Below the pieces are notes generated by a model. It was not told where the DNA came from and ran no database searches. It saw only the letters and a list, made by a program, of their open reading frames with translations. The position numbers and the translations under genes were made by a program. Source: a virus (taxonomy: Duplodnaviria > Heunggongvirae > Uroviricota > Caudoviricetes). Taken from it: a stretch of 17,229 bases of DNA. Positions 1 to 17,229 of this stretch are shown here, in pieces; the stretch's first letter is position 1; each line of letters begins with the position of its first letter. Where the stretch lies: IMG/VR virus record IMGVR_UViG_2751185970_000003. The stretch is one strand, 5' to 3'.

Positions 1-238
1 CATCAATGGTCTTTACAAAGCGGAGGTAATACACCGTAAGAGCTGGAAAAACCGTGCAGAAGTGGAACTGGCCACACTCACGTGGGTGGACTGGTATAAT
101 AATCGACGATTGCTGGAAAGGCTGGGCCACATCCCTCCGGCAGAAGCAGAAAAAGCTTATTATGCTTCCATCGGAAACGATGATCTGGCAGCCTGAGTTC
201 ACAGATAAAACACTCTCCAGGAAACCCGGGGCGGTTCA
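1..238 (+). mobile_element. IS629-like (IS3 family) insertion sequence, right-hand end; element continues upstream of the window
   Basis: The terminal 42 bp (197..238) read on the minus strand are TGAACCGCCCCGGGTTTCCTGGAGAGTGTTTTATCTGTGAAC, which matches the IS629/IS1203 inverted repeat as I remember it, with the TG...CA ends typical of IS3-family elements. The transposase reading frame stops at 194..196, immediately before this repeat. Confidence 0.75.
2..196 (+). CDS. IS3-family transposase OrfB, C-terminal fragment (5' end outside the window)
   Basis: Frame 2 translates to INGLYKAEVIHRKSWKNRAEVELATLTWVDWYNNRRLLERLGHIPPAEAEKAYYASIGNDDLAA followed by TGA at 194..196, a typical IS3-group integrase C-terminus. 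Confidence 0.8.
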   Translation: MNGLYKAEVIHRKSWKNRAEVELATLTWVDWYNNRRLLERLGHIPPAEAEKAYYASIGNDDLAA

Positions 239-773
239 CTCTATTGTTCTTGGTGATAATGACACCGGATTTAAACAGAATGGAGACGGTATTCTGGATG
301 TTTATGCTAATAGTCAGCGTGTATTCCGCTTTCAGAATGGAGTGGCTATTGCTTTTAAAAATATTCAGGCCGGGGATGGTAAAAAATTCACGCTATCCAG
401 CTCCAACAACTCCACAAAGAATGCAACGTTTAATTTATGGGGTGCTTCAACCCGTCCAGTAGTTGCAGAGTTAGGCAATGAGGCAGGATGGCATTTCTAT
501 AGCCAGCGAAATACAGATAACTCGGTAATATTTTCTGTTAACGGTCAGATACAGCCCAGCAACTGGGGGAATTTTGATTCACGCTATGTAAAAGATGTTC
601 GCCTGGGTACGCGTGTTGTTCAATTGATGGCGCGTGGTGGTCGTTATGAAAAAGCCGGACACGCAATTACCGGATTAAGAATCATTGGTGAAGTAGATGG
701 CGATGATGAAGCCATCTTCAGACCAATACAAAAATACATCAATGGCACATGGTATAACGTCGCACAGGTGTAA
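239..773 (+). pseudogene. Tail fibre C-terminal (variable, receptor-binding) fragment, P2 gpH type; 5'-truncated silent inversion cassette (Hv')
   Basis: The translation SIVLGDNDTGFKQNGDGILDVYANSQRVFRFQNGVAIAFKNIQAGDGKKF...[17 protein letters not shown] is nearly identical to the C-terminal ~175 aa of phage P2 gpH as I recall it. It has no start codon; its 5' end abuts the IS629 terminus at 238. The ORF-track entry 54..773 is a read-through across the IS end. Confidence 0.8.
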
Positions 774-776
774 ATT

Positions 777-1305
777 ATGCAGCATATTAAAAAATATTAA
801 GTCCGGAAATCCAAAAACAAAAGAACAATATCAGCTAACAAAGAATTTTGATGTTATCTGGTTATGGTCCGAAGACGGTAAAAACTGGTATGAGGAAGTA
901 AATAACTTTCAGGACGACACCATAAAGATTGTATACGACGAAAATAATATTATTGTTGCCATAACCAAAGATGCCCCAACGCTTAATCCCGAAGGCTTTA
1001 GTGTCGTTGAGATTCCAGATATAACAGCCAATCGTCGTGCCGATGATTCAGGGAAGTGGATGTTTAAGGACGGAACTGTGGTTAAGCGGATTTATACAGC
1101 AGACGAACAGCAACAACAGGCCGAATCACAAAAGGTCGCGTTGCTTTCTGAAGCTGAAAGCGTTATTCAGCCACTGGAACGCGCTGTCAGGCTGAATATG
1201 GCGATGGATGAGGAACGCACACGACTGGAGTCATGGGAACGCTACAGCGTTCTGGTCAGCCGTGTGGATACAGCAAATCCCGAATGGCCACAAAAGCCTG
1301 AGTAA
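777..1305 (+). pseudogene. Tail fibre assembly protein, P2 gpG type (G'), with a +1 frameshift after codon 3
   Basis: From about 787 onward the translation is [37 protein letters not shown]...[10 protein letters not shown], a P2 gpG-like tail fibre assembly protein. The ATG at 777 (atg cag cat) is in frame 0 but the body is in frame +1. An extra A at about 786 creates a stop (tat taa) after 7 codons in the ATG frame. Confidence 0.6.
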
Positions 1306-1310
1306 AAATT

Positions 1311-1330
1311 AAGGCCCAATATCGGGCCTT
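1311..1330. terminator. Bidirectional hairpin terminator between the convergent G' and G genes
   Basis: AAGGCCC-aatatc-GGGCCTT forms a 7-bp stem with a 6-nt loop. On the minus strand it is followed by a T-run (complement of 1305..1309), directly downstream of the minus-strand tfa stop at 1334. Confidence 0.55.
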
Positions 1331-1333
1331 CTC

Positions 1334-1867
1334 TCATTCTGGTTGTTCGGGAAACGTTACTGGCAGGCTGGAGGTGTCTGTAGATTCGACTTTCTGCGCA
1401 TAGAGCATCCACTCGGTTAATTTTTGTTTATTCTCGTCGGAAATGATGCCCAGTCGTAGCTGTGAGTCCCATAGCTGGGTTTTATCCCTGACAAGTTGCA
1501 ACAGGCTTTGCTTTTCATTTTCCGCTTGTTGCCTCTGCTCTTCCTCGGTATAAGTTCGCTTTATCACTACGCCATCTTTGAACAACCATTTCCCCGAAAT
1601 ATCAGCCCGGCGATTTGCTGTAATATCAGGTAATTCAACGACGCTTGCGCCTTCCGGATTAATTGCTGAAACATCCTTTTCAATACAAATAATAACGCCG
1701 TTATGGTAATAGACCATTTTCAAAGTGTCTGGCTGGAAATTCTTTTGTTCCTCATACCAGTTTTTTCCATCATCTGAATAAAGCCATTTGATGTTAAATT
1801 GCTTTGTTAGCTGGTATTGCTCTTTTGTTTTAGGGTTGCCAGCAGTAATGTTTTTTAAGTGCATCAT
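1334..1867 (-). CDS. G: Tail fibre assembly protein (expressed copy)
   Basis: 177 aa, [40 protein letters not shown]...; this is a tail fibre assembly/chaperone family protein. It starts 3 nt after the H stop and the region is AT-rich, as expected for a host-range module. Confidence 0.9.
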   Translation of the reverse strand: MMHLKNITAGNPKTKEQYQLTKQFNIKWLYSDDGKNWYEEQKNFQPDTLKMVYYHNGVIICIEKDVSAINPEGASVVELPDITANRRADISGKWLFKDGVVIKRTYTEEEQRQQAENEKQSLLQLVRDKTQLWDSQLRLGIISDENKQKLTEWMLYAQKVESTDTSSLPVTFPEQPE

Positions 1868-1869
1868 CG

Positions 1870-3855: not shown

Positions 3856-3857
3856 GC

Positions 3858-4388
3858 TTAATCGCCTGGATAAATGGTAATAACTTCACCGTCATAAGTT
3901 GCCGCCGCTGCGAAAATATCCCCCGGAATTTCCTGAATGATATTCAGCCCTGTCATGTGGCGGCTGACCGGGCGGGCATCAGCAATCAACCGCTCCATTT
4001 CCAGATACATTTCCTCCGTCACGCCACTGTCCAGCGTGCCGACTTCAACGGTAAATGTTCCCGGTTCTCCGCCGAACTCCCACCACTCAGACACGCGAAT
4101 GAGGTATCCCAGCGGCTCAATGGCCCGGCGCAGTGCGCTGATGGTCCCTTTGTGTCGGTGTATCAGCCATGCATCACGAATAACCTGTCGCTTTGTCTCT
4201 TCCGGCCAGTTGCGATCCCAGCGGTCAACGGAAAACGCCCAGGCGAGATAAGGCAGCAGATGCACCGGGCAGGTGTCCGGCGACCACAGCGTGTTGAGGT
4301 CTACCGGAATGTCTGTAATGCGTGTTCCGACGGCTTCGGCACAACGCATGAAATTGCTGGCTGATGGTGGTAACAACGAATTACTCAT
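3858..4388 (-). CDS. I: Baseplate assembly protein gpI
   Basis: 176 aa from the ATG at 4388 (MSNSLLPPSASNF...WAFSVDRWD...GEVITIYPGD), with a GAAGGTGG ribosome-binding site 5 nt upstream. The ORF-track start at 4421 is an upstream extension overlapping J. Confidence 0.88.
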   Translation of the reverse strand: MSNSLLPPSASNFMRCAEAVGTRITDIPVDLNTLWSPDTCPVHLLPYLAWAFSVDRWDRNWPEETKRQVIRDAWLIHRHKGTISALRRAIEPLGYLIRVSEWWEFGGEPGTFTVEVGTLDSGVTEEMYLEMERLIADARPVSRHMTGLNIIQEIPGDIFAAAATYDGEVITIYPGD

Positions 4389-5276
4389 TGCGTCCACCTT
4401 CGCTGATGGTGAATGACTCACAGCGCGCCGCCTGTATGTCGCTGATGGCCATATTCTGTGTGGGTTCGATTATCTCCACGCGTTGCACACCGTGCACATG
4501 CAGTGCGGCAGCAATGGCGGACAACGCCACGTCCTGACCGATAAGCCCCTGCTCAGCCAGCCACTTCCTGAACGACGATTCAGCCGCGGCCAGAATAGGT
4601 TCGGATTCCGGGCCGGGGTAAAAGTACAGTTTTGCATTCAGCCGCCATGTCACGATTCTGGCACTCTGTACGGTCAGGCGGTCGCCACCGGGCGGGTATC
4701 CTCTGCATTCAGAACGGCGCGAACGGTATTAAGCAACGCCTCCGTTGCTGTGCCGTCGCCCTCAGTGGACAGGATGGAAACCGTCACGTTGGCCGGAGAC
4801 GGGCTGATGGCCCGCGCATCGCGTACCAGACCGCTGGCGCTGCGTGCAAAATACTCGTATGCACCTGACGGGCCAGCAACACTCAGACCGTCATATGCCC
4901 GTTGCGCCCGTAGTCTCAGCGAGGTGTCACTTTCCATCACTGCATCGGTGGTATCCGTTGCCGGAGTGATAACCAGGCGCTTTGTGTTCATATTGCCCGC
5001 GAGGTTGTCCAGGTCTGTCCCGGCGCTGTGGCTTAGCATGCAGGCGCGTGCACCCTCATTGACCCGCTGGCGTAACAGCATTTCACGAAACGACATGGTT
5101 TGAGCGATAACGTTAAGGGGTTCCGATTCCAGCTCCAGCGCGGCGGAAACGGCTTCACGCTGTTCGGCGGGATAGGACGCAATCATCATGGCCTTTGTGT
5201 CAGCCAGAATTGCCTCAAAGTCAGGCTCCGCGATGATGGCGGGTTCCGGTAACTGTGAAAGGTCAACGGCAGGCAT
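4381..5276 (-). pseudogene. J: Baseplate assembly protein gpJ, split by a 1-bp deletion (frameshift near 4683)
   Basis: Two ORFs (4674..5276 and 4381..4653) together cover a P2 gpJ-like protein (MPAVDLSQLPEPAIIAE...TRPVA then, in another frame, GDRLTVQSARIVTWRLNAKLYFYPGPESEP...). The minus strand reads gtggcgaccgcctga where gtggcgGaccgcctg would restore the frame. Confidence 0.7.
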
Positions 5277-5279
5277 GAT

Positions 5280-5630
5280 TTACTCCCTCAGCGTGATGGT
5301 TAATTCAACATTCTGCATGGTCTGCATGACAGTGCCCGACAGCGTCACCCCGGCGCGGCCTCCTGCCTTCCAGACAACGTCGATAGCGTCCAGGGCAATG
5401 CGGGGTTCCCATCGTGTCAGCGCAATCACGGCAGCACTCATGCATTGCAGACGCGTGGTGTTATTCATGGGTTCGTCAATCAAATCAGGCACAAGGCTGC
5501 CATATTCCCGTCGCATAACCCGGCTTGCCAGCGGGGTGGTCAGGATGTCCCTGACTGACTGTTTCAGGTGCTCCATATCGTTCAGGTTTCCCGTTCCGTC
5601 CGGGTTCATTCCTGTGTAGCGGGTTGTCAC
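5280..5630 (-). CDS. W: Baseplate wedge protein gpW
   Basis: 116 aa, MTTRYTGMNPDG...SRVMRREYGSL...; the size and sequence pattern fit P2 gpW. It overlaps the V stop by 4 nt (ATGA). Confidence 0.88.
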   Translation of the reverse strand: MTTRYTGMNPDGTGNLNDMEHLKQSVRDILTTPLASRVMRREYGSLVPDLIDEPMNNTTRLQCMSAAVIALTRWEPRIALDAIDVVWKAGGRAGVTLSGTVMQTMQNVELTITLRE

Positions 5631-6208
5631 TGCGGGCCTCCTGTCGAATCGCTGCCACCTTTAACGCCACCGTGTTTATGCGTATGCACTGTGATGCCGT
5701 TTGAGGTGAAATTGCCGCCGCTGTGCGTGATATTGCCGCTCATCTTTCCCCCTTTTGTGACGTCAAGCGTCGCCGTTCTCAGAAGGTCTGTGCATTCCAC
5801 GACGGGCGTATCCAGTGTCACGCTGACGGATGCCTGCAGGGTGGCTGTTTTCATGCCGCTGGCGCTCAGTGCGCCTGCGTCCGCGTCGTAGCGGAACACC
5901 GCGCCATCCGGCGCGCTGACCACGATTTCTTTCAGGCTTTTGCCGGGGGCCGGAATGGCATCACTCCACAGGCTGCCAATTATCATGGCGGTTTCCGGGT
6001 TGCCGCCAATGCAGGCAATTACCACCTGTTCGCCTGGTGATGGCGGCAGCCACACATTGAAGGCTCCCGCGCGAGAGGTGTTCCAGCGCAGCCAACCTGT
6101 TTCCAGTTCGCCGCTGCGAACGCGCACGCGCCAGGACTTCTCATCAACTTCAGAGATGATCCCGGTGCGGATGATATTGCTCAGTAGCCGCATGAGTTCT
6201 GCGCTCAC
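5627..6208 (-). CDS. V: Baseplate spike protein gpV
   Basis: 193 aa, with the NIIRTGII, GEQVVI and C-terminal SNGITVHTHKHGG motifs characteristic of the P2 gpV spike. Confidence 0.9.
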   Translation of the reverse strand: MSAELMRLLSNIIRTGIISEVDEKSWRVRVRSGELETGWLRWNTSRAGAFNVWLPPSPGEQVVIACIGGNPETAMIIGSLWSDAIPAPGKSLKEIVVSAPDGAVFRYDADAGALSASGMKTATLQASVSVTLDTPVVECTDLLRTATLDVTKGGKMSGNITHSGGNFTSNGITVHTHKHGGVKGGSDSTGGPQ

Positions 6209-6840
6209 CGTACAGCCTCCGCAATCCGGCCCAGCACCGTGTTATAAATCAGACGCTCATCTGCCTGGCTGATACCCAGCAGCTCACGTACCGGGTAATC
6301 GGTGAAAATGCCCGGCGCAACCTGATCGCGCTCACCGAACTGATGAACGCGTGCAATACGTGCGGCCACGCCGCTGTAACCCACCGTCACACCGGAAGCA
6401 TCTGCACGGGCTTTCAGGTAGCGGGCGGTGCGCAGTTTTACGAACATGGGGACGCGCTTTGTGCTGTCCTGGTTGATGCGCCGGGTGCGTATTTCCAGAA
6501 AGCGGTCGATGTCATCCCGGTAAAACGTGCGGATGCTGTTTTTATCCTCATCCCACCCGGTGATGGTTCGCCCGTATTTCCCCGTGTCGTGATGCCAGTT
6601 TTTCAGCGTGCGTGCTTCGTTATTCCAGATAAAGCGAATGCGCTCCTGTATCCGGGTTACGTGGCGTCTGCGTGGTGTCCATGCGGTCCCGTCCGGCGCT
6701 TTCTGTGGCCGGATACGTGCCTGCTGGGCGCGGCGTAAATCCTGTGCCAGCTTTCTGGCGATGTTATTGATGGCCTGCTGATTCAGGCTGTCGCGGATGG
6801 CCTCAAAGGTTTCATCCACGCGAGTGAATGCCTTATCCAT
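6205..6840 (-). CDS. S: Tail completion / virion morphogenesis protein gpS
   Basis: 211 aa from the ATG at 6840, which has a GGGGTGA ribosome-binding site; the ORF track starts at a GTG at 6849. The PDGTAWTPRRR, FVKLRTARYLK and ARIARVHQFG motifs fit the P2 gpS family, and the gene lies between R and V. Confidence 0.8.
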   Translation of the reverse strand: MDKAFTRVDETFEAIRDSLNQQAINNIARKLAQDLRRAQQARIRPQKAPDGTAWTPRRRHVTRIQERIRFIWNNEARTLKNWHHDTGKYGRTITGWDEDKNSIRTFYRDDIDRFLEIRTRRINQDSTKRVPMFVKLRTARYLKARADASGVTVGYSGVAARIARVHQFGERDQVAPGIFTDYPVRELLGISQADERLIYNTVLGRIAEAVR

Positions 6841-7300
6841 CGCTTTCACCCCACGTCACATCCTGGAATACATGCGACCAGTCGCCTTCGGAAGATGGCA
6901 GGCGGGGTTTTGGCTCCAGCAGGTGTTCTGCCTGCGGTGTGCCCTGACTGCTGCGCGTGATGCGAACGCGTTCCCGCAGGGGGAGCGTAAACAGGAGATC
7001 GGCGCTGTCATCGTCATTGATAACGGCGGAAAATTTGATGTCCTGATTACGCTCAGGGTTGAGCAACAACTGTGGCTGATTTTCGGATAACCACGCCAGC
7101 AGCGGCAGCGTGAGGTCGTCCAGCTCCCCGGCGTAATCCATGACAAACATCACCATCTGATAGCGGTAAACAAACGATGGGGTTTCTCCGGTCGTTTCAA
7201 TGTTGCCGCTCTCCACGAAAATGGTGAATTTTTCCGGGTTAGCCTGACACCATCGGCATGAACGGGTCATGGCTTCACGCAGGGAATCAGTTTTCAGCAT
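6833..7300 (-). CDS. R: Tail completion protein gpR
   Basis: 155 aa, MLKTDSLREAMTRS...LLAWLSENQP...; same length as P2 gpR with clear N-terminal similarity. Confidence 0.88.
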   Translation of the reverse strand: MLKTDSLREAMTRSCRWCQANPEKFTIFVESGNIETTGETPSFVYRYQMVMFVMDYAGELDDLTLPLLAWLSENQPQLLLNPERNQDIKFSAVINDDDSADLLFTLPLRERVRITRSSQGTPQAEHLLEPKPRLPSSEGDWSHVFQDVTWGESDG

Positions 7301-7577
7301 GGTTGTTATCCTCGTTGTTCAGTCGTTGCAGCCTGCGCTGTTCCAGTAATTCAATGGCCCGTTTATCCGCGTTACAGGTTTCCAGTGCATCCAGAAGGCG
7401 GTCGCCCCATATACCGAGATTTCCCCATGTGGGAGTGTCAGGGAAGGGGGGAGGCGTTACCGGTATGGTCAGCGTCTGCGGTATAAGCCGGACTGACGGC
7501 GCTGGCAGTGGCGCGTTCTGCGTGCCTGCGCAGCCTGTCAGTAAAACGAGCGTCAGGCAAAGCGTGGGCGCATTCAT
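7287..7577 (-). CDS. lysC: Outer-membrane spanin lipoprotein (Rz1-like, LysC)
   Basis: 96 aa from the ATG at 7577: MNAPTLCLTLVLLTGCAG has a lipobox, followed by a proline-rich stretch (PLPAPSVRLIPQTLTIPVTPPPFPDTP). It begins inside the 3' part of lysB in another frame and extends beyond it. The ORF-track start at 7607 is a GTG. Confidence 0.8.
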   Translation of the reverse strand: MNAPTLCLTLVLLTGCAGTQNAPLPAPSVRLIPQTLTIPVTPPPFPDTPTWGNLGIWGDRLLDALETCNADKRAIELLEQRRLQRLNNEDNNHAEN

Positions 7578-7845
7578 CTTTTGCAATATCGTTGCGTAGC
7601 TGTTCACGTCTTACCTCTCCGTCCTGATTGCGTTGCTGATTTTCCACGCGGAGTTGCGCCAGCACCTGCTGCATATCCTGTACCCCGGCGCTGATGATAT
7701 TCAGGGTGTCGGCGGTACTTTTCAGGGTGCTGGCCTGCGCTTCGTTTCTGGCGTTCTCCCGGCCCAGCGACCACGACAGACGCATGGATGTTCCCCATCC
7801 GGCAGTCAGAAGGAAAGCGACGCCAAGCGTGGGCCAGAGCTTCAT
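7438..7845 (-). CDS. lysB: Inner-membrane spanin (Rz-like, LysB)
   Basis: 135 aa from the ATG at 7845 (MKLWPTLGVAFLLTAGW...), with an N-terminal transmembrane segment followed by a charged coiled-coil. It overlaps the endolysin stop by 4 nt (ATGA). Confidence 0.8.
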   Translation of the reverse strand: MKLWPTLGVAFLLTAGWGTSMRLSWSLGRENARNEAQASTLKSTADTLNIISAGVQDMQQVLAQLRVENQQRNQDGEVRREQLRNDIAKDECAHALPDARFTDRLRRHAERATASAVSPAYTADADHTGNASPLP

Positions 7846-8234
7846 GCCGGATAGGCTCCGTGTGGTAACTGAAAATGCGGTCCGTCTTTCAGGGTCTTCC
7901 AGTCGCCGCCCCATTCCACCGGAATATTCAGTTCCCGGCTGGCCTGTCTGAATGCTGCTGCGATTTTTTCGTACAGCGGCCATTCCCATGACATCTGGCT
8001 GCCGATATAAGCCACAACATCCACGGCATGCCCCGTAAGGTGGCGGCTGTTCATGGTCTGGCTCTTACCCGTGGCCACCAGTTGCTTCTGGCGGTAACGG
8101 CTGCGCAACCCTTCGGTGATACCAAAATCCACTTCCGAGATTTCCAGTGCCCGTCGGGTCACTTTCACCAGATCAGGATTTACACCCTGCAAATTCTTTT
8201 CGCTCCGGCTGCTGAATTTAAATGTGTTGCTCAT
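7842..8234 (-). CDS. Endolysin, peptidase M15 / L-alanyl-D-glutamate peptidase type
   Basis: 130 aa with the zinc-peptidase signature SRHLTGHAVDV and a downstream DGPHFQ, placed between holin and spanins. This is not the lysozyme-type P2 gpK. Confidence 0.75.
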   Translation of the reverse strand: MSNTFKFSSRSEKNLQGVNPDLVKVTRRALEISEVDFGITEGLRSRYRQKQLVATGKSQTMNSRHLTGHAVDVVAYIGSQMSWEWPLYEKIAAAFRQASRELNIPVEWGGDWKTLKDGPHFQLPHGAYPA

Positions 8235-8554
8235 TCGTCCTTCTCCTTCACCCTGCGATTAAAGGCCGCAATAACCTTGTCGCGTGCTTTCTCTGCACCC
8301 ATAAAACCGATTGATGCGCCGATAAACGTCACGGCATCTTCAGGAAACCCGAAGAAGCGCAACGACCCGGCCACGGCCATGGCAAGAACGCCGCACGCCA
8401 GCGATCCCGTTACGGTCTGAACCAGTGTTCGTCCGTCATAAAGGCTCATCAGCGCGGAAATGCTGACCGCCGCGCCTACTGCATACACCGTTGGCAGGTG
8501 GTCAAAGAGCCACGCAATAACCTGCTCTGTGATCCCTGTTTGAATGGTGCTCAC
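8231..8554 (-). CDS. Holin (three predicted transmembrane segments, charged C-terminus)
   Basis: About 107 aa from the GTG at 8554, with a GGGGGAG ribosome-binding site 6 nt upstream. Hydrophobic segments TVYAVGAAVSISALMSL, VTGSLACGVLAMAVAGSL and AVTFIGASIGFMGA are followed by a KR-rich tail. It sits immediately upstream of the endolysin with an ATGA overlap. Confidence 0.7.
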   Translation of the reverse strand: MSTIQTGITEQVIAWLFDHLPTVYAVGAAVSISALMSLYDGRTLVQTVTGSLACGVLAMAVAGSLRFFGFPEDAVTFIGASIGFMGAEKARDKVIAAFNRRVKEKDE

Positions 8555-8556
8555 TG

Positions 8557-8757
8557 CTACTCCCCCCACAACTGAATCATTTCTCGTTTCTTCTTCTCCG
8601 GCTCCGGCATCTCCACTTCCTGCCCGGCGTCCAGAAATACCTGCTGACAGAGTCCGGGGTTGGCATCCAGCACCTTTTCGGTGACGCCCTGCGTCGTGCC
8701 GTAGTACCGGAAACAGAGCGAATCCACGGTGTCGCCTTCCAGTGCCTTCACTTTCAT
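8557..8757 (-). CDS. X: Tail protein gpX
   Basis: 66 aa from the ATG at 8757 (MKVKALEGDTVDSLCFRYYGTTQGVTEKVLDANPGL...LWGE), resembling P2 gpX (MKTFALQGDTLDAICVRYYG...). It overlaps the L stop by 1 nt (TGATG). Confidence 0.88.
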   Translation of the reverse strand: MKVKALEGDTVDSLCFRYYGTTQGVTEKVLDANPGLCQQVFLDAGQEVEMPEPEKKKREMIQLWGE

Positions 8758-9251
8758 CAGCACAACTCCGCAAAGATTCGCGGGCGGCACAGAATGTCAG
8801 AGATGGCCCAGCTCACATCACGCCACAAATCCGATGTCTGTATATCCAGAGCGTCTGCCCGGCGGTCGCCCTTGTCCGTAGTGTCTGCATCACGATAACG
8901 CTCCAGAATCAGGGCGCGCGTGGCGGTATAAACAGCATTGCGCCAGTGCCAGAGATTGACGCTTTCTCCGTTAATTACGGGTGCCGGAACATCGGCCAGC
9001 GTCTGATGGCCAGCTGCCTGCTGTTCCTGCTGCCATGCTTCCAGCTCGCGGGTAACGTGTGCCACAGCCCCGGTGGCAGTATGCAGCAGGCGGGAGGTGG
9101 TCACGCGCCCCGGCAGTCGTACCGCCAGACGCAGCTCGCGCAGCACAATATCCGGCCAGAATGCACCCGCTGAAATGCGGGTATCGCCATCATCGGTATC
9201 GGTGATGTCGTCCTCTGCGGGTCCGGGTTCAGTTCTGGCAACTATAGTCAT
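8757..9251 (-). CDS. L: Head completion / stabilisation protein gpL
   Basis: 164 aa from the ATG at 9251, with an AGGAG ribosome-binding site 9 nt upstream. Its position between M and X and its size fit P2 gpL. Confidence 0.8.
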   Translation of the reverse strand: MTIVARTEPGPAEDDITDTDDGDTRISAGAFWPDIVLRELRLAVRLPGRVTTSRLLHTATGAVAHVTRELEAWQQEQQAAGHQTLADVPAPVINGESVNLWHWRNAVYTATRALILERYRDADTTDKGDRRADALDIQTSDLWRDVSWAISDILCRPRIFAELC

Positions 9252-9354
9252 GGGGTTCACTCCTGAAAAAAAATCGGGCGGTGGGTGCGCGGTGTAAACG
9301 GTCACGGAGTCAAACTGGAACACCGCGCACGCCGCCCGCTGACGGGGTCAGTCG

Positions 9355-10155
9355 TTAACCGCGCTTCGCCTTCTGCGTCGCGGTGGTTTTTCGTGTTGCA
9401 GGCTTCCGCGTTGTCTTTTTACTTTTGCTGCTTTCGTCCTGCGCCTGCTGTGCGCTGGCGTCTTCTGGTTCGGCTGCGGAATCGGCTTTTTTCAGGGCGC
9501 GGGAAAGGGTTGCAATCTCGCGTTTCACACCTGCGTTCGGGTTCAGGTGCATTGCTTCGCGCAGCAGCTTCAGTGACAGGGCCATGCTGTCCGCATCACT
9601 CAGGCCACGGCGGGCAAAGGCGCACGCTTTGCATAATTTGGCGCGCACTTCGTCCGGCATGTCCTGGTCGGTGACAATCTCCCGGAGGGTGTCCAGTGGT
9701 TCGATAAAGGCGGACAAATCCGCGTCGGCATCCGTCCCGGCCTGCGTCAGTACCGGATTACAGATTTCTTCGGTCAGTACCGTGGCAGCAGTACGGCCAA
9801 AGTTATCCGGCATGATGAGGTTGTGACGGACTACATACGCGCCGATACGCAGCGCAAGCGGAAGATCGCCACAGTCAATCGCCCACACCATCAGCGTGGC
9901 AATCACTTCATCCTGCTGCCCGCCGTCAGCCTCCAGCGTTCCCTCAATCCAGCCGGAAAAATCCGGCAACAACTCTTTTTTGATGGCGGCTTTCGCGCTT
10001 CTGGCCTGTACGCCCTTAAGCCGGGCCTGTGCCAGACGCAGACGATACAGCACCTCTTCATGCGCGGTACGCGCGGCGTGGTCCACGCCTTCATTCGCCC
10101 GGCCTGCGCGCTGTGCCATCACGTTCTGCCAGTGTTGTTGTGCAGGAGTAATCAT
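9355..10155 (-). CDS. M: Terminase endonuclease (small) subunit gpM
   Basis: 266 aa, with a GGAGAG ribosome-binding site upstream of the ATG at 10155. Its position after the capsid gene and its basic C-terminal tail (KKTTRKPATRKTTATQKAKRG) fit P2 gpM. Confidence 0.85.
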   Translation of the reverse strand: MITPAQQHWQNVMAQRAGRANEGVDHAARTAHEEVLYRLRLAQARLKGVQARSAKAAIKKELLPDFSGWIEGTLEADGGQQDEVIATLMVWAIDCGDLPLALRIGAYVVRHNLIMPDNFGRTAATVLTEEICNPVLTQAGTDADADLSAFIEPLDTLREIVTDQDMPDEVRAKLCKACAFARRGLSDADSMALSLKLLREAMHLNPNAGVKREIATLSRALKKADSAAEPEDASAQQAQDESSKSKKTTRKPATRKTTATQKAKRG

Positions 10156-10172
10156 TTTTGCTCTCCGTTACA

Positions 10173-10191
10173 GGCGGGCATGATGCCCGCC
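10173..10191 (-). other. Perfect 19-bp palindrome / stem-loop between capsid gene N and terminase gene M
   Basis: GGCGGGCAT-g-ATGCCCGCC has 9-bp arms. It lies between the N stop (10201) and the M ribosome-binding site and is a candidate attenuator, RNA processing or stability element. Confidence 0.5.
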
Positions 10192-10200
10192 GTGAGTTGA

Positions 10201-11252
10201 TTAGCTGTCGGCGAACTTCAGGCCAGTAACCATCGCGCACTTGCCATAGTCTTCAACGACATAAGCGTCATTGATGGACTGGTAGGTGGCGATGCGGTTG
10301 TATTCCGGCTCGTCTTTCATCAGGCGACGCATTGAACCTTTCTGCCAGTAAATCGACAGGTTGTTGAACGAGGTGATCAGCATCGTTGCATCCGGGAAGA
10401 ACGGCGCAAGGAACACGCCCAGCCCGCCAATGGTGCGCGATGACAGGATGAGCTGCCCGGCGAGTAATTCCGCATTGGGATTCTGGCCGCTGATGCTGTT
10501 CAGCACGGGCAGACGCAGCGAGTTAAACAGGTTGCGCCCCATAATCACCACGAGGTCGTCAGCTTCCTTGTGCCATTCATCCAGCAGGGATGAACGCGCG
10601 TCCTGTACCAGTGCATCAGCGTTCGCATACTTACCCGCGTGCGCCACGGTGTTGTCCATGTTGCGGGAGGTCAGCGTCACGTCATTCATAACGCGTTCGC
10701 TGGCGTCGGTTCTGATGTGCTCCAGCCAGCCCACGTTAACGTCCTGAAGCAGCTTGTTGGTGCTGAAGTTGGACTCATCCGCGTGAGACGTGCCGTTGAA
10801 ACCGATCATGATGCGGTCAAGCGCCACCTGTCGGGCAATCTGTGCGCTGATGCGGGACTGAAAATCAGGGTGTGCCGACCAGGCATCAAGCTGCGGATAC
10901 GAAATAAACGTGTCGTAGTTCACCTGTTCACACTGATATTTGCGGTTTTTCAGATCAACCACGTTATTCGGGTTACGGCGTTTTGTGCCGTCATAACTGG
11001 TATTCGTGCGCGCAATCGGTCCTGTGGTATCCAGGAGGATTTTTTCGCCTTTCTGGTCGGTCACGCCGATCACGTTATTTTTTTCGTAAATTCGGTACTT
11101 TCCTTTGAGGCGTTTTCAAAACGCTGCTGCACCGCGGGTTCCACGGTAAATCGCGACACCAGTGCAGATACCGGGATATTATTAAGCGACACCTGCTGCG
11201 CCATATAGCAACCCAGCTTGTTGCGGGTAATATCTGACATCACCAGATTCAT
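10201..11252 (-). pseudogene. N: Major capsid protein gpN, interrupted by a 1-bp frameshift in a homopolymer (T7 at 11078..11084)
   Basis: The ATG at 11252 has an AAGGAG ribosome-binding site 9 nt upstream. The first 60 codons (...FTVEPAVQQRFENASKESTEFTKK) end at a stop at 11070; the rest (...NVIGVTDQKGEKILLDTTG...NLSIYWQKG...YVVEDYGKCAMV) is in the -1 frame. One extra T/A in the run would give a continuous ~350-aa P2 gpN-like protein. Confidence 0.75.
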
Positions 11253-11275
11253 AAAAAATTTGCTCCTTTGTCTAA

Positions 11276-12112
11276 TCAGAAGTCGGCCAGCTGGTCGGAG
11301 GCTGCGCCCGTTGCGGTGAAGCGGTTCTGCGGATCGCCGTCCTGCGTGCGCAGTTTTTCCTTCAGTGCTGCCAGCTCTGTGGTCAGTGACGTAATTTTCT
11401 GGCGGTCCTGCTGATGGCGGGTTTCCAGCACATTAAAACGGTCGATAATGTCGGCCTGTGACGTTGCGACGCCTTCCACCGCTTCCTGAATACGGGAAAA
11501 ACTGGCGTCATCCGCTTTGCGGCCACGGCCAATAATCCCCATTACGCGGTTAAACCACTGGGTGCCTTCTTCCTGGCGTTGTTCTGCCATTTCGATGATT
11601 TCAGACTCGATGGCTTCGGAGATAAGCGGCGCTTCACCCTGGATACTGTTAAACGTCATCACCGCCTGACGTTGCTGTGCCGTGAATTTCAGGCGCTCAG
11701 TGCCCAGGCTTGCCGGGGTGTCGGTCATCGCCAGCCCGACCAGATAGGCGCGCCCGTTAACGGAGAACTGCGGGTGCAGTTCGATACTGGAATAGATTTT
11801 CTTGCCGTCCGCAACAAGCTGCTTCATGCGCTCGGTCGGTTCGATTTCTGCATACAGCGCAGTACGTCCGGCCAGCGGACCTTCCGTAATCTCTTCCGTA
11901 CTCAGTGCGGTGACATCGCCCATTGCGGAAAATTCGCTTGACGGGCATGGCGAGAGATAGTGCTCAACGTTCACGCGGGCAGCGTAAACATCCGGGTTGA
12001 AGTTCTCGGCGGCTTCACGCAGATGCACCGGACTGATTTCACGGCCATCAACAGTTGATCCGGAGACAGCCACGCGAAACTTTTTGCGGGATGTCTTTTT
12101 TTCATTAGCCAT
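11276..12112 (-). CDS. O: Capsid scaffolding protein gpO
   Basis: 278 aa from the ATG at 12112 (MANEKKTSRKKFRVAVSGSTVDGREISPVHL...YLVGLAMTDTPASLGTE...), resembling P2 gpO (FRIGVEGDTCDGRVIS..., CYLVGLAVTDDPASLGTE). The ORF-track start at 12145 is an upstream extension. Confidence 0.88.
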   Translation of the reverse strand: MANEKKTSRKKFRVAVSGSTVDGREISPVHLREAAENFNPDVYAARVNVEHYLSPCPSSEFSAMGDVTALSTEEITEGPLAGRTALYAEIEPTERMKQLVADGKKIYSSIELHPQFSVNGRAYLVGLAMTDTPASLGTERLKFTAQQRQAVMTFNSIQGEAPLISEAIESEIIEMAEQRQEEGTQWFNRVMGIIGRGRKADDASFSRIQEAVEGVATSQADIIDRFNVLETRHQQDRQKITSLTTELAALKEKLRTQDGDPQNRFTATGAASDQLADF

Positions 12113-12266
12113 AGTTTTTGCCCCTCTGACTGGTTCTTCAGTCATGATGGCAAAGCGTAACAGGCTGATACAAAGGGCTTTTGTTGTAAGAAAACGGCCA
12201 GAACAGAGGGTTAAGGAGAACAGTTTCGCGCGCGGGTAATCTTCCTGTAATTACTCAGGGGGAGCA
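12113..12266. promoter_or_regulatory. Divergent O / P intergenic region; expected site of the late promoters for the O-operon (minus) and P-Q operon (plus)
   Basis: A 154-bp non-coding gap between divergently transcribed O and P, with ribosome-binding sites at both ends. This is the same arrangement as in P2. I could not find a clean TGT-N12-ACA activator box. Confidence 0.4.
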
Positions 12267-14018
12267 ATGATTCAGGACGCTTTTGTGCGCCAGCGTGCGC
12301 GGCAACTTTACTGGCAGGGTTATCCGCCCGCAGAAATATCACGTCTGATGGGAATAAACCCGAACACGATTTATGCGTGGAAAAAACGTGACCAGTGGGA
12401 TGAAACGCCACCCGGGCAGCGTGTCACGCAGTCCATCGATGCGCGCCTCATCCAGCTTACTGAAAAACAGAATAAAACAGGCGGTGACTTTAAGGAAATA
12501 GACCTGCTGACCCGGCAGCTTAAAAAGCTGCATGATGGCCAGCCGGATGTGATGGCCGCAGGAAAGAAAGGCCGGGCGAAAAAACTCAAAAATCATTTCA
12601 CGCCGGAACAGATTGCCGCACTGCGGGAAAAAATCATCAGCAGGCTGGAGTGGCATCAGCGGGGCTGGTTTGACTCCCTGACCCTTTGCAGGGAAGCCGG
12701 GATACGTAACAGGATGATCCTGAAATCCCGACAGATTGGGGCGACCTGGTATTTTGCACAGGAAGCACTGCTGATGGCGCTGCGTGACGATGTGGCGCAA
12801 CCTTACCAGCGTAACCAGATTTTTTTGTCTGCGTCGCGTCGTCAGGCGTTCCAGTTTAAAAGCATTATTCAGAAGGCCGCGGCTGAAGTTGATGTGGAGC
12901 TGAAAGGGGGCGATAAAATCATCCTCTCCAACGGCGCAGAGCTGCATTTTCTCGGCACTTCTGCTGCGTCGGCACAGTCCTATACGGGCAATTTTTATTT
13001 TGATGAATTTTTCTGGGTCAGTCGCTTTGCTGAACTGCGCAAGGTGGCTGGCGCTATGGCAACCCTCAGCGGACTGCGGCGCACCTACTTCTCCACGCCA
13101 TCCACCGAAACGCACGAGGCATACGCCTACTGGAACGGCGACCGCTGGAACGAGAAAAAGGCCTCGCATAAACGCCAGCGTTTTTCTGTGGACTGGAAAA
13201 CGCTGCATAACGGGCTTATCTGCCCTGACCGGACGTGGCGGCAAATTGTCACGCTGGAAGATGTGGTTAATCACGGCTGGAAACACACCGATATCGACGA
13301 AATTCGTGATGAAAACACCGAAGACGAGTTCCTCAATCTCTATATGTGTGAGTTTGTCCGCGAAGGGGAATCGGCATTTAACCTGAATATCCTGATTGGC
13401 TGCGGCGTTGACGGATACGACGACTGGAAAGACTGGAAACCTTTTGCTCCCCGCCCGATGGGGAATCGTCCGGTATGGATTGGGTATGACGCAAACGGCA
13501 GCAGTGGCAACGGCGACAGCGGCGCTGTGTCCGTGGTGGTTCCTCCGTCTGTTCCTGGTGGCCGTTTTCGAACGGTGGAGACGCGACGCGTTCAGGGGCT
13601 GGAGTTTGAAGAACAGGCCAGAGTCATTGAAGAGTTCACGTGTCGCTACAACGTGGAACACATCGGCATTGATGTGACGGGCGGGAACGGGGAGGCTGTT
13701 TATCAGATAGTGAAACGGTTTTTCCCTGCCGCTATTCCGTACACCTTCACGCTGTCATCAAAACGGTCGCTGGTACTGAAAATGCTGCAAATAATGCGTG
13801 CCGGGCGGTGGGAATACGATCGCGCCGAACGCGAGCTGGTCGCGGCCTTTAACGCCGTGCGTAAGGTGAAAACACCGGGCGGCTTTATCACTTACGAAAC
13901 GGACCGAGCGAGGGGGATCAGCCACGGCGACCTTGCGTGGGCAACCATGCTTGCTGTCATTAACGAACCGATTGGCGGCGAAGGAGAAAACGAGCGTTTC
14001 ACGGTTATGGAGTTCTGA
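12267..14018 (+). CDS. P: Terminase large subunit (ATPase) gpP
   Basis: 583 aa, with a GGGGGAG ribosome-binding site. The N-terminal MIQDAFVRQRARQLYWQGY...ISRLMGINPNTIYAWKKRDQW region and the overall size match P2 gpP. It overlaps the Q start by 1 nt (TGATG). Confidence 0.93.
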   Translation: MIQDAFVRQRARQLYWQGYPPAEISRLMGINPNTIYAWKKRDQWDETPPGQRVTQSIDARLIQLTEKQNKTGGDFKEIDLLTRQLKKLHDGQPDVMAAGKKGRAKKLKNHFTPEQIAALREKIISRLEWHQRGWFDSLTLCREAGIRNRMILKSRQIGATWYFAQEALLMALRDDVAQPYQRNQIFLSASRRQAFQFKSIIQKAAAEVDVELKGGDKIILSNGAELHFLGTSAASAQSYTGNFYFDEFFWVSRFAELRKVAGAMATLSGLRRTYFSTPSTETHEAYAYWNGDRWNEKKASHKRQRFSVDWKTLHNGLICPDRTWRQIVTLEDVVNHGWKHTDIDEIRDENTEDEFLNLYMCEFVREGESAFNLNILIGCGVDGYDDWKDWKPFAPRPMGNRPVWIGYDANGSSGNGDSGAVSVVVPPSVPGGRFRTVETRRVQGLEFEEQARVIEEFTCRYNVEHIGIDVTGGNGEAVYQIVKRFFPAAIPYTFTLSSKRSLVLKMLQIMRAGRWEYDRAERELVAAFNAVRKVKTPGGFITYETDRARGISHGDLAWATMLAVINEPIGGEGENERFTVMEF

Positions 14019-15064
14019 TGAGCAGAAAAAATAAAAAAGTGCGCATGAGTTCACGCATTGATCTCGCTGATGCGCTCAGGAAAGAATCATCGCTCAGTGC
14101 ATTCACATTTGATGGTCCTTATCGCCTGACCGGGCATGACCTGCTGGACAATATGTACTGTGCTGATAACGGGCGGTGGTATGAAACCCCGGTGGACTGG
14201 TACGGTCTGGCAAGAGCTGCCCGGCAAACGTCCTGGCATCAGTCTGCGCTTTATTTTAAGCGCAATGTATTGCTCGGTTGCTACATCCCGCACCCGCTGC
14301 TTTCCCGGCAGGATTTCTCGGCGCTGGCGCTGGACTGGTTTGTGTTCGGTAACGCATTCCTTGAGCTTCGAAGCAATATGCTCGGCGAACCGCTTAAATT
14401 ACGGCACGCCCTGGCGAAATACATGCGACGCGGAAGCGATCTTGAATCATGGAGGTATGTGCAGGATGGCAAGGATGCGTTTCAGTTTCGCCCAGGCAAA
14501 GTGTGTCACCTGATGAATCCTGACATTAACCAGGAAATCTACGGCATGCCGGAATATCTCGGCGCATTACTCTCGGCCAGCCTGTCTCATTCGGCGGACA
14601 TGTTCAGAAAACTGTATTACGACAACGGATCCCACGCCGGGTGCATCATCTACATCGGTGCCGCGCAGGTAAACCGCGAAAGCATGGACTCCCTGAAAGA
14701 AACGCTACAGGGTGCGCGTGGTGGTGGTGCGTTTAAAAACGTGCTCATTCATGCGCCCAACGGGGGCAAAGAGGGGGTGCAAATTTTGCCGTTCCAGCAG
14801 ATCACCGCAAAGGATGAGTTCATGAATGTTAAGGCGGCATCCCGTGATGATGTGCTGGCTGCGCACCGCGTTCCGCCGCAACTGATGGGGGCGATGCCGG
14901 GTGAAAAAAGTGCGTTTGGTGATGTGGAGAAGGCCGCGCGGGTTTACGCAATTAACGAGCTGATGCCCGTCATGGAGGCCATGAAGCACATCAATGACTG
15001 GCTTGGCGAAGAGGTGATCCGCTTTAACCCTTACGCACTGTTAGACATCCAGCCCACATCCTGA
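14018..15064 (+). CDS. Q: Portal (capsid vertex) protein gpQ
   Basis: 348 aa, MSRKNKKVRMSSRIDLADALRKES...; the size and position downstream of P fit P2 gpQ. Confidence 0.92.
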   Translation: MSRKNKKVRMSSRIDLADALRKESSLSAFTFDGPYRLTGHDLLDNMYCADNGRWYETPVDWYGLARAARQTSWHQSALYFKRNVLLGCYIPHPLLSRQDFSALALDWFVFGNAFLELRSNMLGEPLKLRHALAKYMRRGSDLESWRYVQDGKDAFQFRPGKVCHLMNPDINQEIYGMPEYLGALLSASLSHSADMFRKLYYDNGSHAGCIIYIGAAQVNRESMDSLKETLQGARGGGAFKNVLIHAPNGGKEGVQILPFQQITAKDEFMNVKAASRDDVLAAHRVPPQLMGAMPGEKSAFGDVEKAARVYAINELMPVMEAMKHINDWLGEEVIRFNPYALLDIQPTS

Positions 15065-15091
15065 CGCGCTTCGCTTGTCTGCTGCTTCGCC

Positions 15092-15114
15092 GGGGCATAA
15101 AAAATTTATGCCCC
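15092..15114 (+). terminator. Hairpin immediately downstream of Q
   Basis: GGGGCATAAA-aaa-TTTATGCCCC has a 10-bp stem and begins 28 nt after the Q stop. There is no strong U-tract, so it may act as an RNA stability element or weak terminator. Confidence 0.45.
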
Positions 15115-15283
15115 GACTCTCCAGCTCCTGTATCAGTCAGATAATTTCACGACGCCTTCCAGTTTATCGCCACCATCGACGGTCAGACTCTTACGCAATC
15201 CCACCGCGTTGACTGCATGTTCTCGCCGCCTCAGTGCGATTTTGACGGCCTTACCTTTCACCCCATCAAATCAGAATCCCTCA

Positions 15284-15314
15284 CGTATTTTTCACGCTCA
15301 GCGTGAGAAATACG
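15284..15314. other. 31-bp near-perfect palindrome in the cos-proximal non-coding region
   Basis: CGTATTTTTCACGCT-c-AGCGTGAGAAATACG has 15-bp arms with a single mismatch; it is a candidate protein-binding or packaging element. Confidence 0.6.
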
Positions 15315-15393
15315 GCCATTCTGTCGTGTCGCTGCGACATCGTTAAGGGAACGCTATTTACCCCCTGAAACGCGGGCTGTTCCCCCGTCACCT

Positions 15394-15418
15394 GCGCGCA
15401 GAAAAAGCGCGTTTTTTT
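15394..15418 (+). terminator. Rho-independent terminator (plus strand)
   Basis: GCGCGC-agaaaaa-GCGCG followed by TTTTTTT at 15412..15418. Confidence 0.6.
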
Positions 15419-15488
15419 GTGCACGCACGGATCCTTGACGGATCCAGCCGCCACGCGGGCTGGAAGGGCAAAAATTCGTTCAAAAAAA

Positions 15489-15515
15489 TTGTGCAAATTT
15501 GTGCACTATTGTGCA
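15489..15515. repeat. Three direct TTGTGCA repeats with exact 10-bp phasing
   Basis: aTTGTGCAaa tTTGTGCAct aTTGTGCAgc at 15489, 15499 and 15509, preceded by an A-tract. The one-helical-turn spacing suggests an array of protein-binding sites. Confidence 0.6.
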
Positions 15516-15517
15516 GC

Positions 15518-15541
15518 AGGGCGATGTGCGATTATCGCCCT
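15518..15541 (-). terminator. Stem-loop 14 nt downstream of the Ea22-like gene stop (possible terminator)
   Basis: AGGGCGAT-gtgcgatt-ATCGCCCT has an 8-bp stem. No immediate U-tract follows on the minus strand. Confidence 0.3.
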
Positions 15542-15554
15542 GGTTTGAGGGGGA

Positions 15555-16145
15555 TCAGGTGTTATTTTTATCTGTCGTCAGTGGGCTAAACCATCCACAA
15601 TTTACATCGCATGACTGATGCGTTCTGTCCTCGTGTTTCTCCTGCCACAATGCTTTTCCGCCAGCCTTTATGATGGCTCTTTCAACATCCCGCTCGTATC
15701 GCAAGGGCTGAAATACGTCATTAATGAAATATTCGCTTATGTCCGGAAGCGATACTGCAAAATTATTTGTTTGTTGCGCCGTCCTGCTATGCAGCAAAGC
15801 GGCATGCTTTAATGCGTCCTGTGCTTTCTGGAATTTAAGTGCATAGTCAGTGGCGATTTTTTCCAGTTCAGCGATTCGGTTGTCTTTGGTTTCCAGCCAA
15901 TCAAGTAGCGCCAATACTTCAGGATCCCCGACATCCAACACTGTTACGCGTGATTTTTCATAATGTTCGTCAGCAAGAGTTCGGCCAATTTTGAAATCTC
16001 CATCATCACCATAACCGGAGCAGGCATAAACAACCTGTGCTCCAGATATTCGCTGAATTGACATTTCCTCGCCGCAAATAGGGCATTTCGGTACTGGCAC
16101 AGGTGAATAACGTTCACGTAATGCCTGATAGTTGATTTCGCTCAT
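15555..16145 (-). CDS. Ead/Ea22-like family protein with an N-terminal zinc-ribbon (CPICGEEM...YACSGYG) and a central coiled-coil; function unknown
   Basis: 196 aa, with an AAGGAGA ribosome-binding site 8 nt upstream of the ATG. MSEINYQALRERY... and PEVLALLDWLETKDNRIAELEK resemble the Ea22-like proteins of enterobacterial prophages that I remember. The gene is visibly lower in GC than the flanking phage genes. Confidence 0.7.
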   Translation of the reverse strand: MSEINYQALRERYSPVPVPKCPICGEEMSIQRISGAQVVYACSGYGDDGDFKIGRTLADEHYEKSRVTVLDVGDPEVLALLDWLETKDNRIAELEKIATDYALKFQKAQDALKHAALLHSRTAQQTNNFAVSLPDISEYFINDVFQPLRYERDVERAIIKAGGKALWQEKHEDRTHQSCDVNCGWFSPLTTDKNNT

Positions 16146-16208
16146 TAAGTCGTTCTCCTTGTTTATGTTCTGAGGTGGAGAGCAGGGCGAACTCGCCCTG
16201 ATGTTGTG

Positions 16209-16520
16209 TTATTCAGGAAATAACGCCCGGATATTTCCGGCCATCTGACTGGTTATCTGTGCGGTTGATACTGGCTGTGATGCGGGGCGTTCTGTCCTGG
16301 TTTGTGTCACTGATAACGCTTCATCACCAGCCCATGCAGCCAGTCGATAAGCCTCTGCCGGATTCATTTTCAGAAGTGCCAGCCCGGCCAGAAAAGCCAC
16401 GCGTTGGCCGCTTTTGCGGGCTTCTGGTGTAAGGCTGTCCAGCCAGGCGCATGCTTCTCCTTCGTTCTTGACGGCGGTGGGCTTCAGATAGAAACTTATC
16501 CGTCTGGTTGGAGTCGTCAT
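16209..16520 (-). CDS. parR: ParR/StbB-like ribbon-helix-helix centromere-binding protein
   Basis: 103 aa from the ATG at 16520 (MTTPTRRISFYLKP...AWLDSLTPEARKSGQRVAFLAGLALL...), resembling R1 ParR (RRTIAFKLNP...LDSIPQGERSRLNRAALTAGLALY). It starts 4 nt after the parM stop, the same gene order as R1 parM-parR. Confidence 0.7.
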   Translation of the reverse strand: MTTPTRRISFYLKPTAVKNEGEACAWLDSLTPEARKSGQRVAFLAGLALLKMNPAEAYRLAAWAGDEALSVTQTRTERPASQPVSTAQITSQMAGNIRALFPE

Positions 16521-16524
16521 TGGT

Positions 16525-17130
16525 TTACTCCTTGTCCATTGCGTACAGCCCATTAACCAGAGCAAACTGTGGCACCCCGTCCGCGATGAAAGTCGCATTA
16601 ACTCCGCAGGCTTCGCGGATAGCGGGTGCCACAATCTCCGCCCCTCCACCGACAACCATCACCCGCCCGTAACCCGAAAAAACCGCCAGCGCGCGGATCA
16701 CGCGTTGTTTCAGTGTTTCTTCCTTTTCACGAATTACCGCCATCAGGCTGGCGTAATGCGCGTCATTGTGGATGTGCTGGCGCAGCCAGGCTTCATCATG
16801 GCGATGTTCGATAATGGTATTGGCGATGTGGTGACTGGTGCGCATACCGTTAGTGGCCATCACCGACAGTACGGCATCGGCCATCAGAGAAACGCCCACG
16901 TGTGGATCGCAAAACACCTGGCTGATACCTGCCAGTTGCCCCTGAACCTTTGCCACATCCAGCGTGGTTCCGCCCAAATCCACAATCAGCAGGGATTCAA
17001 ACGGACTCATGTCAGCCAGTGCCTTAAAGCCAGCCGGAATGGATTCAGGCATAACCTGTACGTTACGGATAGTGAATGCTTCGCCGTTCTGGTACTCCAC
17101 CGGGCGCATGACGTTCGCTTTTTTGCGGTT
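16525..17130 (-). pseudogene. parM: ParM/StbA-like actin-type partition ATPase, 5'-truncated (about 115 N-terminal residues missing) by an IS insertion
   Basis: The translation ...NRKKANVMRPVEYQNGEAFTIRNVQVMPESIPAGFKAL...LLIVDLGGTTLDVAKV...VFSGYGRVMVVGGGAEIVAPAI...FALVNGLYAMDKE aligns with R1 ParM from about residue 120 onward (phosphate-2 and adenosine motifs present). The coding sequence abuts the IS terminus at 17131 and the only in-frame start is a TTG inside the IS end. Confidence 0.75.
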
Positions 17131-17229
17131 TGAAGTGGTCAACAAAAACTGGCCACCGAGTTAGAGTTTTTCCAGTATCGATTTTCCGATTCGTTTGGGG
17201 GGAACCCACCGTTATATTCGTGCGGTCTT
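17131..17229. mobile_element. Terminus of an IS3-family-like insertion sequence (IS911-like end), continuing beyond the window
   Basis: The sequence begins TGAAGTGGTCAACAAAAACTGGCCACC, which resembles the IS911-type terminal repeat (TGAAGTGG...TGGCCACC) as I recall it, exactly where ParM homology stops. No ORF is included in the 99 bp available. Confidence 0.5.

Follow-up and report, generated by a model that had tools for sequence, protein, structure and literature searches.

The locus raises a plain question: is the major capsid gene N of this P2-like phage DNA truly broken, or does it only appear so because a homopolymer was misread? The window, by which we mean the whole 17,229-nt stretch analysed, comprises the late genes of a cryptic P2-family prophage in a Shigella lineage, closest to Escherichia phages 500465-2 and P88. 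The original prediction, made from the letters alone, placed the first 60 and the remaining ~290 codons of the capsid protein in different frames, joined at a T7 run (11078..11084), and offered two readings of this arrangement: either a mutation had really inactivated the gene in a decaying prophage, or the homopolymer had been missequenced. We consider it very probable that gpN is a genuine pseudogene, created by a single ancestral lesion and vertically inherited in a decaying cryptic P2-family prophage.

The split itself is upheld by the sequence, the ORF list and the Pfam profile. Rather than a single uninterrupted ORF of about 350 codons, the ORF list gives two gpN ORFs on the minus strand (Table 1), which lie in different frames and overlap by 4 nt. 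The first opens with ATG at 11252; its frame changes after codon 59 and it reaches a stop after codon 60, and the capsid homology resumes in the second at ...NVIGVTDQKGEK. Junction peptides from the break would read EFTKKNNVIGVTDQK or EFTKKIT. Both fragments belong to PF05125 (Phage_cap_P2; 327 positions) by profile score, each exceeding the gathering cut-off of 27 bits, and the profile is divided cleanly between them at positions 49/50, which indicates that the two ORFs are contiguous halves of one capsid gene. The gpN of the window is, in other words, a pseudogene of the P2-family capsid family.

Table 1. Features of the window discussed in the text, in window coordinates; a slash marks the frame break.
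Feature	Position	Strand	State and basis
Tail-fibre IS3-family element, 3' end	1..238	+	Inserted in the alternative tail-fibre C-terminal segment
Tail-fibre assembly gene of the invertible segment (G')	777..1305	+	+A at 786, codon 5; first start ATG changed to ATT
Baseplate gene J	4381..5276	-	Split, 200 + 90 codons; one G lost from GG at 4683/4684
gpM, small terminase	9355..10155	-	Intact, 266 aa; PF05944
gpN, 3' fragment	10201..11073	-	290 codons to the native stop; PF05125 positions 50-324, 341.2 bits
gpN, 5' fragment	11070..11252	-	60 codons, ends ...STEFTKKIT* at a premature TGA; PF05125 positions 4-49, 28.8 bits
gpN frameshift site	11076..11084	-	Window ACG AAA AAA A/TA ACG TGA; intact ACG AAA AGA ATT AAC GTG
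gpO, capsid scaffold/protease	11276..12145	-	Intact; PF05929, 304.6 bits; synteny with L006
gpP, large terminase	12267..14018	+	Intact; ORF list, L006 annotation, Pfam labels
gpQ, portal	14018..15064	+	Intact; ORF list, L006 annotation, Pfam labels
Second IS3-family element, end	17131..17229	-	Truncates parM; remnant ORF 16525..17145

Comparison with orthologous N genes, which had been proposed as a check on the frameshift, bears this out: intact relatives carry one more base, their gpN region being 1053 nt long and that of the window 1052 nt. Sixteen phage records match the N region over its full length at 94-98%, among them Escherichia phages 500465-2 and P88, a Xuanwuvirus and Citrobacter phage Shae_phiSM. 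Each has the additional base, those that are annotated have a 350-aa capsid gene here, and none of the 16 carries the window allele. The capsid segment is also found in 1045-1098 complete E. coli genomes, the best matches being 99.6-99.7% identical and again one base longer, with the top matches annotated as an intact 350-aa capsid. For the window allele, 0 of the 1045 complete E. coli genomes with the capsid segment reach 99% identity, and the full search set of 5426 complete E. coli genomes, which was screened for both the window allele and the P88-type A7 allele, contains no genome that shares the frameshift in either form. Among GTDB genomes, with one representative per species, the exact allele has no match; the sole match there to a looser pattern covering both candidate -1 alleles (L022) lies in an unrelated gene and was set aside as a chance match. 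The genes of 500465-2, P88 and the E. coli prophages (WP_001055089.1) are thus the same gene in the same place of the Q-P / O-N-M-L head module, at 96-99.7% nucleotide identity to the window gpN, but all of these relatives are intact, whereas the window has lost one base at codon 59/60 and its frame is broken after 60 codons. Over positions 239-17130 the window is collinear with an annotated intact E. coli prophage (L006) at 98.0% identity.

The exact change at the site differs from what its position suggests. On the plus strand the T7 run follows a single A at 11077 and corresponds to A7 on the coding strand, and the original prediction had placed the shift inside this homopolymer. At these codons, the ortholog alignment (A1) has TTT ACG AAA AGA ATT AAC GTG (F T K R I N V) in the closest intact alleles, ACA AAA AAA ATT AAC (T K K I N) in P88, and ACG AAA AAA A-T AAC in the window. 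Relative to its nearest intact alleles, the window therefore has one base fewer and a G-to-A change, and it is because of this G-to-A change that the window has an A7 run at all. Since the intact relatives read either ACG AAA AGA ATT AAC or, in P88, ACA AAA AAA ATT, the A7 run is not ancestral. Both the ortholog alignment and the blastn gap put the lost base at plus-strand 11076/77 (AA to A), next to the T7 run and not within it, contrary to the placement in the original prediction. The lost base is best placed beside the run, as the T of ATT, which is more parsimonious than a loss within the run. As this case shows, a frameshift can sit at a homopolymer without being a change in its length.

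How the frame is repaired makes the same point at the protein level. Inserting a T, which restores the codon ATT, gives a gpN that differs from the E. coli protein WP_001055089.1 at A21V and R58K only, and the 290-codon part is nucleotide-identical to the intact E. coli allele. Because the repaired gene is only 2 of 1053 nt and 2 of 350 aa from an intact E. coli allele, the inactivation appears to be recent. The original prediction had instead added one more T to the run. This is mechanically correct, in that one T/A added there also restores a single ORF, but the restored peptide is off by one residue: it reads TKKNNV (I59N), a residue absent from every homolog, all of which read TK(R/K)INV. 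The mutational path would have had two steps, either G-to-A followed by loss of T, or loss of G followed by T-to-A. The one-step intermediate ACG-A7-TT was not found in the 1045 E. coli genomes or in the phage records.

An artefact, in which the true sequence is one base longer and gpN is intact, would be confined to one assembly and irreproducible. The gpN frameshift is widely shared. The exact 60-aa product is already catalogued, as 'MULTISPECIES: P2 family phage major capsid protein [Shigella]' and as 'Capsid protein, Shigella flexneri', and occurs on 636 contigs (indexed in 1122 blocks, 21 of which have contigs >1 Mb); the exact 290-aa product occurs on 690. We compared ten independent Shigella assemblies (L008-L017), of which seven are chromosome-sized, at 4.3-4.7 Mb. 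The 28-nt frameshift site is identical in all ten loci, and the 1052-nt N region is identical to the window in five, with one further SNP (G671A) in the other five. That the same lesion is found across sub-lineages that have diverged from one another indicates that it was inherited and is not an artefact. Judged from these sequences, the gpN frameshift is a genuine, inherited one-base deletion and not a sequencing error. The first of the two readings offered at the outset, an inactivating mutation in a decaying prophage, is thereby supported by ten of ten assemblies and 636 contigs, and the second, a homopolymer sequencing error, is rejected.

The grounds for suspecting an error were that the frame change falls at a 7-base homopolymer and that single bases have also been lost or gained in J and G'. 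For this prophage an error-prone assembly does exist: one of the Shigella loci, L009 (CP026731.1), carries six private one-base deletions, at window positions 531, 557, 565, 846, 4633 and 5536, all of them within homopolymers of 3 to 5 nt, and here homopolymer assembly error is the explanation. The window stands in contrast to it. Against its nearest sister, L017, it has 2 mismatches and 1 gap over 14.7 kb, that is, one private indel over about 15 kb, which speaks against an error-prone assembly. The J deletion, moreover, is also present in an unrelated assembly, and a longer run at the N site would have introduced the residue that no homolog carries. Together with the identical allele in all ten assemblies, these observations lead us to regard a sequencing or assembly error at gpN as extremely unlikely.

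A genuine -1 allele might still be something other than a dead gene, and similar alleles occur elsewhere at this Lys-Lys site. A 60-aa fragment from Shigella sonnei 53G and 3226-85 (P0007) ends in TKKLT*, as seen at the protein level. Three IMG/VR contigs have ACA-A7-TT where P88 has A8 (L018, 3856-4038; L019, about 2020-2041; L020, about 654-675). Such P88-type A7 alleles are absent from the complete E. coli genomes, and the IMG/VR alleles could be draft-genome errors. The site has been hit by -1 events more than once and is at most a mild mutational hotspot. A stronger version of this idea would make codons 57-59 a recurrent hotspot, independently hit in Shigella lineages (the flexneri/boydii-type A7-T allele ending TKKIT* and the sonnei allele ending TKKLT*), with the -1 alleles partly expressed through tRNA-Lys or RNA-polymerase slippage as a low, tunable supply of capsid. 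We hold this to be very improbable.

The same alleles bear on whether the tract could be a phase-variable switch, in which homopolymer length varies within populations and toggles the capsid on and off. The frame change does lie at a homopolymeric tract, and the A8-to-A7 alleles of L018-L020 are independent -1 changes at the same site, albeit in drafts. A switch of this kind should leave variation in run length, but the run is constant in the ten Shigella loci, the 60-aa product that fixes its frame is carried on the 636 contigs, and no A7 variant is seen among complete E. coli genomes with the A8 allele, at least 78 of which match at >=99%. Restoring the run would, furthermore, not recreate the wild-type residue. 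Phase variation is, in our judgement, next to impossible here.

Recoding is a related proposal. It holds that leaky or programmed slippage, either of tRNA-Lys by -1 on G_AAA_AAA_A or of RNA polymerase adding an extra A, yields a useful full-length capsid with the TKKNNV junction. Several features of the site are compatible with it. The downstream ORF is in the -1 frame, and A-runs are slippery for both ribosomes and RNA polymerase (PMC4066793; PMC1088944); E. coli genes are depleted in A7 and U7, possibly as a result of slippage or of a high indel rate (PMC4066793). The independent S. sonnei allele also ends at the same codons. By the motif definitions of PMC4066793, the zero frame ACG AAA AAA ATA does place an A_AAA tetramer in phase, but the heptamer G_AAA_AAA is non-canonical at its first position with respect to X_XXY_YYZ. 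Selection against transcriptional slippage is typically evident at runs of about nine (PMC1088944); a conserved A/T run of slippage length (typically 9, sometimes 8; PMC1088944) is not found at this site, where the run counts seven bases in the window and is split by a G in the nearest intact alleles. The sequence downstream of the run shows no stimulatory structure: its minimum free energy of -22.1 kcal/mol (z = -1.58) does not set it apart from shuffles, 12 of 200 of which fold as well, and the same sequence is present in intact genes. An Rfam scan of the whole window returned nothing at gathering thresholds.

The comparative evidence points the same way. A two-ORF layout maintained for recoding would be expected to be conserved, but the gene is one continuous ORF in more than 1000 E. 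coli genomes and in every phage relative, and the two-frame arrangement is absent from all 16 phage records and from every E. coli match examined. The prophage also carries other disabling lesions. The closest parallels are poly(A) frameshifts that are partly rescued by transcriptional slippage, such as Shigella mxiE and the disrupted 9A genes (Baranov et al. 2005, PMC1088944), where, as here, one A added to the mRNA rejoins the frames. The gpN of the window differs from those cases in that its run is 7 and not 9 or occasionally 8, is not conserved in homologs, and would insert a non-native residue upon rescue. Trace amounts of full-length gpN could be made through a leak at the A7 run, but nothing supports programmed or useful recoding at gpN, and we consider a useful recoded capsid very unlikely.

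We therefore return to simple inactivation as the preferred reading. We propose that codons 57-60 changed from ACG AAA AGA ATT to ACG AAA AAA AT, through a G-to-A change and the loss of one base. A ribosome would then read ...TKKIT and stop at the TGA after 60 codons, and the remaining 290 codons, nearly all of the capsid fold, would lie in the -1 frame and remain untranslated as capsid. Functional capsid protein would, on this sequence, not be made. The lesion would have arisen once in an ancestor and been inherited vertically from then on, alongside other lesions of independent origin; the prophage is presumably no longer able to complete a lytic cycle.

Several independent disabling lesions are indeed found in the window: the N frameshift, the IS in parM, the IS in the tail fibre, and the J frameshift. 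The original prediction had taken the J and G' frameshifts and two IS insertions as signs of a decaying prophage, and this context of decay is real. All three frameshifts that it listed are present, but they have differing histories: the N lesion is in all ten Shigella loci, that of G' is in the five that cover the spot, and that of J is private to the window among them.

The J deletion recurs outside this set, in a P2-like prophage diverged by 2.2% (L021; GCA_900163925.1) that encodes the exact 200-aa truncated product. Around the J site, about 1 kb (4583-5574) of L021 has one difference from the window, which suggests either a recurrence or a recombined patch. Because the deletion is also present in a diverged prophage of another assembly, the J frameshift is probably real as well. 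The additional A in G' is not in a homopolymer and is common to all five Shigella loci covering it, in which gene prediction continues to yield a 187-aa Caudo_TAP product. With an in-frame ATG further upstream, at 697, the window retains an open frame of 202 codons (697-1305), and G' may thus not be inactivated.

The two insertions differ in a similar way. The element at the left end is 98.3% identical to an annotated IS3-family transposase element in L007 and 100% identical to an IS copy in L017, and it is absent from all five Shigella loci that cover the insertion spot. At the right end, homology to E. coli parM ends at 17130, where an IS3-family end begins (TGAAGTGG...), a sequence that matches the gene for a 389-aa HTH_Tnp_1/rve transposase in L017. 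This parM junction (17130/17131) is common to ten of ten Shigella loci. Beyond parM, the sister loci contain only IS copies, a DUF4754 gene and a short integrase remnant before host genes resume.

The head module around gpN has otherwise kept its form. The ORF map, the Pfam assignments of O and M, and the collinearity with L006 over 239-17130 recover the expected order, with the portal and large terminase on one strand and O, N, M and the head completion gene L on the other. The small terminase is intact at 266 aa in the window and in L017; nine of the ten Shigella loci have a shortened 248-aa call or no call. In the four loci that were compared base by base, the cause is a 10-bp duplication (TTTTGCTGCT-like) at window position 9434, which frameshifts the gene and is absent from the window and L017. 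This duplication came later, as a second lesion, and sets a sub-lineage apart. Intergenic A-runs also vary among relatives, with A8 versus A6 between L and M (window 9266-9267) and A6 versus A5 just upstream of the N start codon (window 11253), in both cases without coding consequence.

This pattern resembles that of other cryptic Shigella and E. coli prophages, which decay by IS insertions and small indels, as here by two IS3-family insertions and the N and J frameshifts. As in the stepwise vertical decay of such prophages, the lesions are nested among strains, the 10-bp duplication of M in the sisters included. Nothing about the prophage in the window is unusual in this comparison. Most of its late genes are still intact and nearly identical to those of functional relatives, which suggests that the decay is recent. 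Domestication of the tailocin type, with the head switched off and the tail kept, was considered and rejected: the other head genes (O, M, L, P and Q) are intact, and tail-fibre and baseplate genes have lesions too.

The break in gpN is thus biological and not technical, but it has little importance beyond annotation. The frameshift is already public, in that its fragments are annotated in hundreds of Shigella genomes, and it is an ordinary pseudogene. For annotation hygiene, the 60- and 290-aa Shigella entries named 'P2 family phage major capsid protein' are the two parts of a single pseudogene. The nested lesions could also provide a small marker of lineage within this cryptic prophage: those in N, G' and parM (parM::IS) are shared, the M duplication is carried by a subset of strains, and the J frameshift and the tail-fibre IS are in the strain of the window and in no fetched sister locus covering those spots.

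Some smaller features concern the window as a whole. It starts and ends inside IS copies (1-238 and 17131-17229), and the longest contig is 10-20 kb in 797 of the 1122 index blocks for the capsid fragment; from these two observations, the window may be a whole short-read contig broken at IS repeats. At position 17202, within the right-hand IS end, a G completes a run of six; the five sister loci aligned base by base carry T there, and the difference is due either to a private substitution or to a sequence error in a repeat copy. The tail-fibre region (window 239-2570) lies in the opposite orientation in half of the sister strains (comparisons with L008, L009, L013, L015 and L017). The two orientations give fibres of 716 aa and 661 aa, as expected for a Cin/Gin-type invertible segment, and in the window one of the alternative fibre C-termini is cut by the IS at 238/239.
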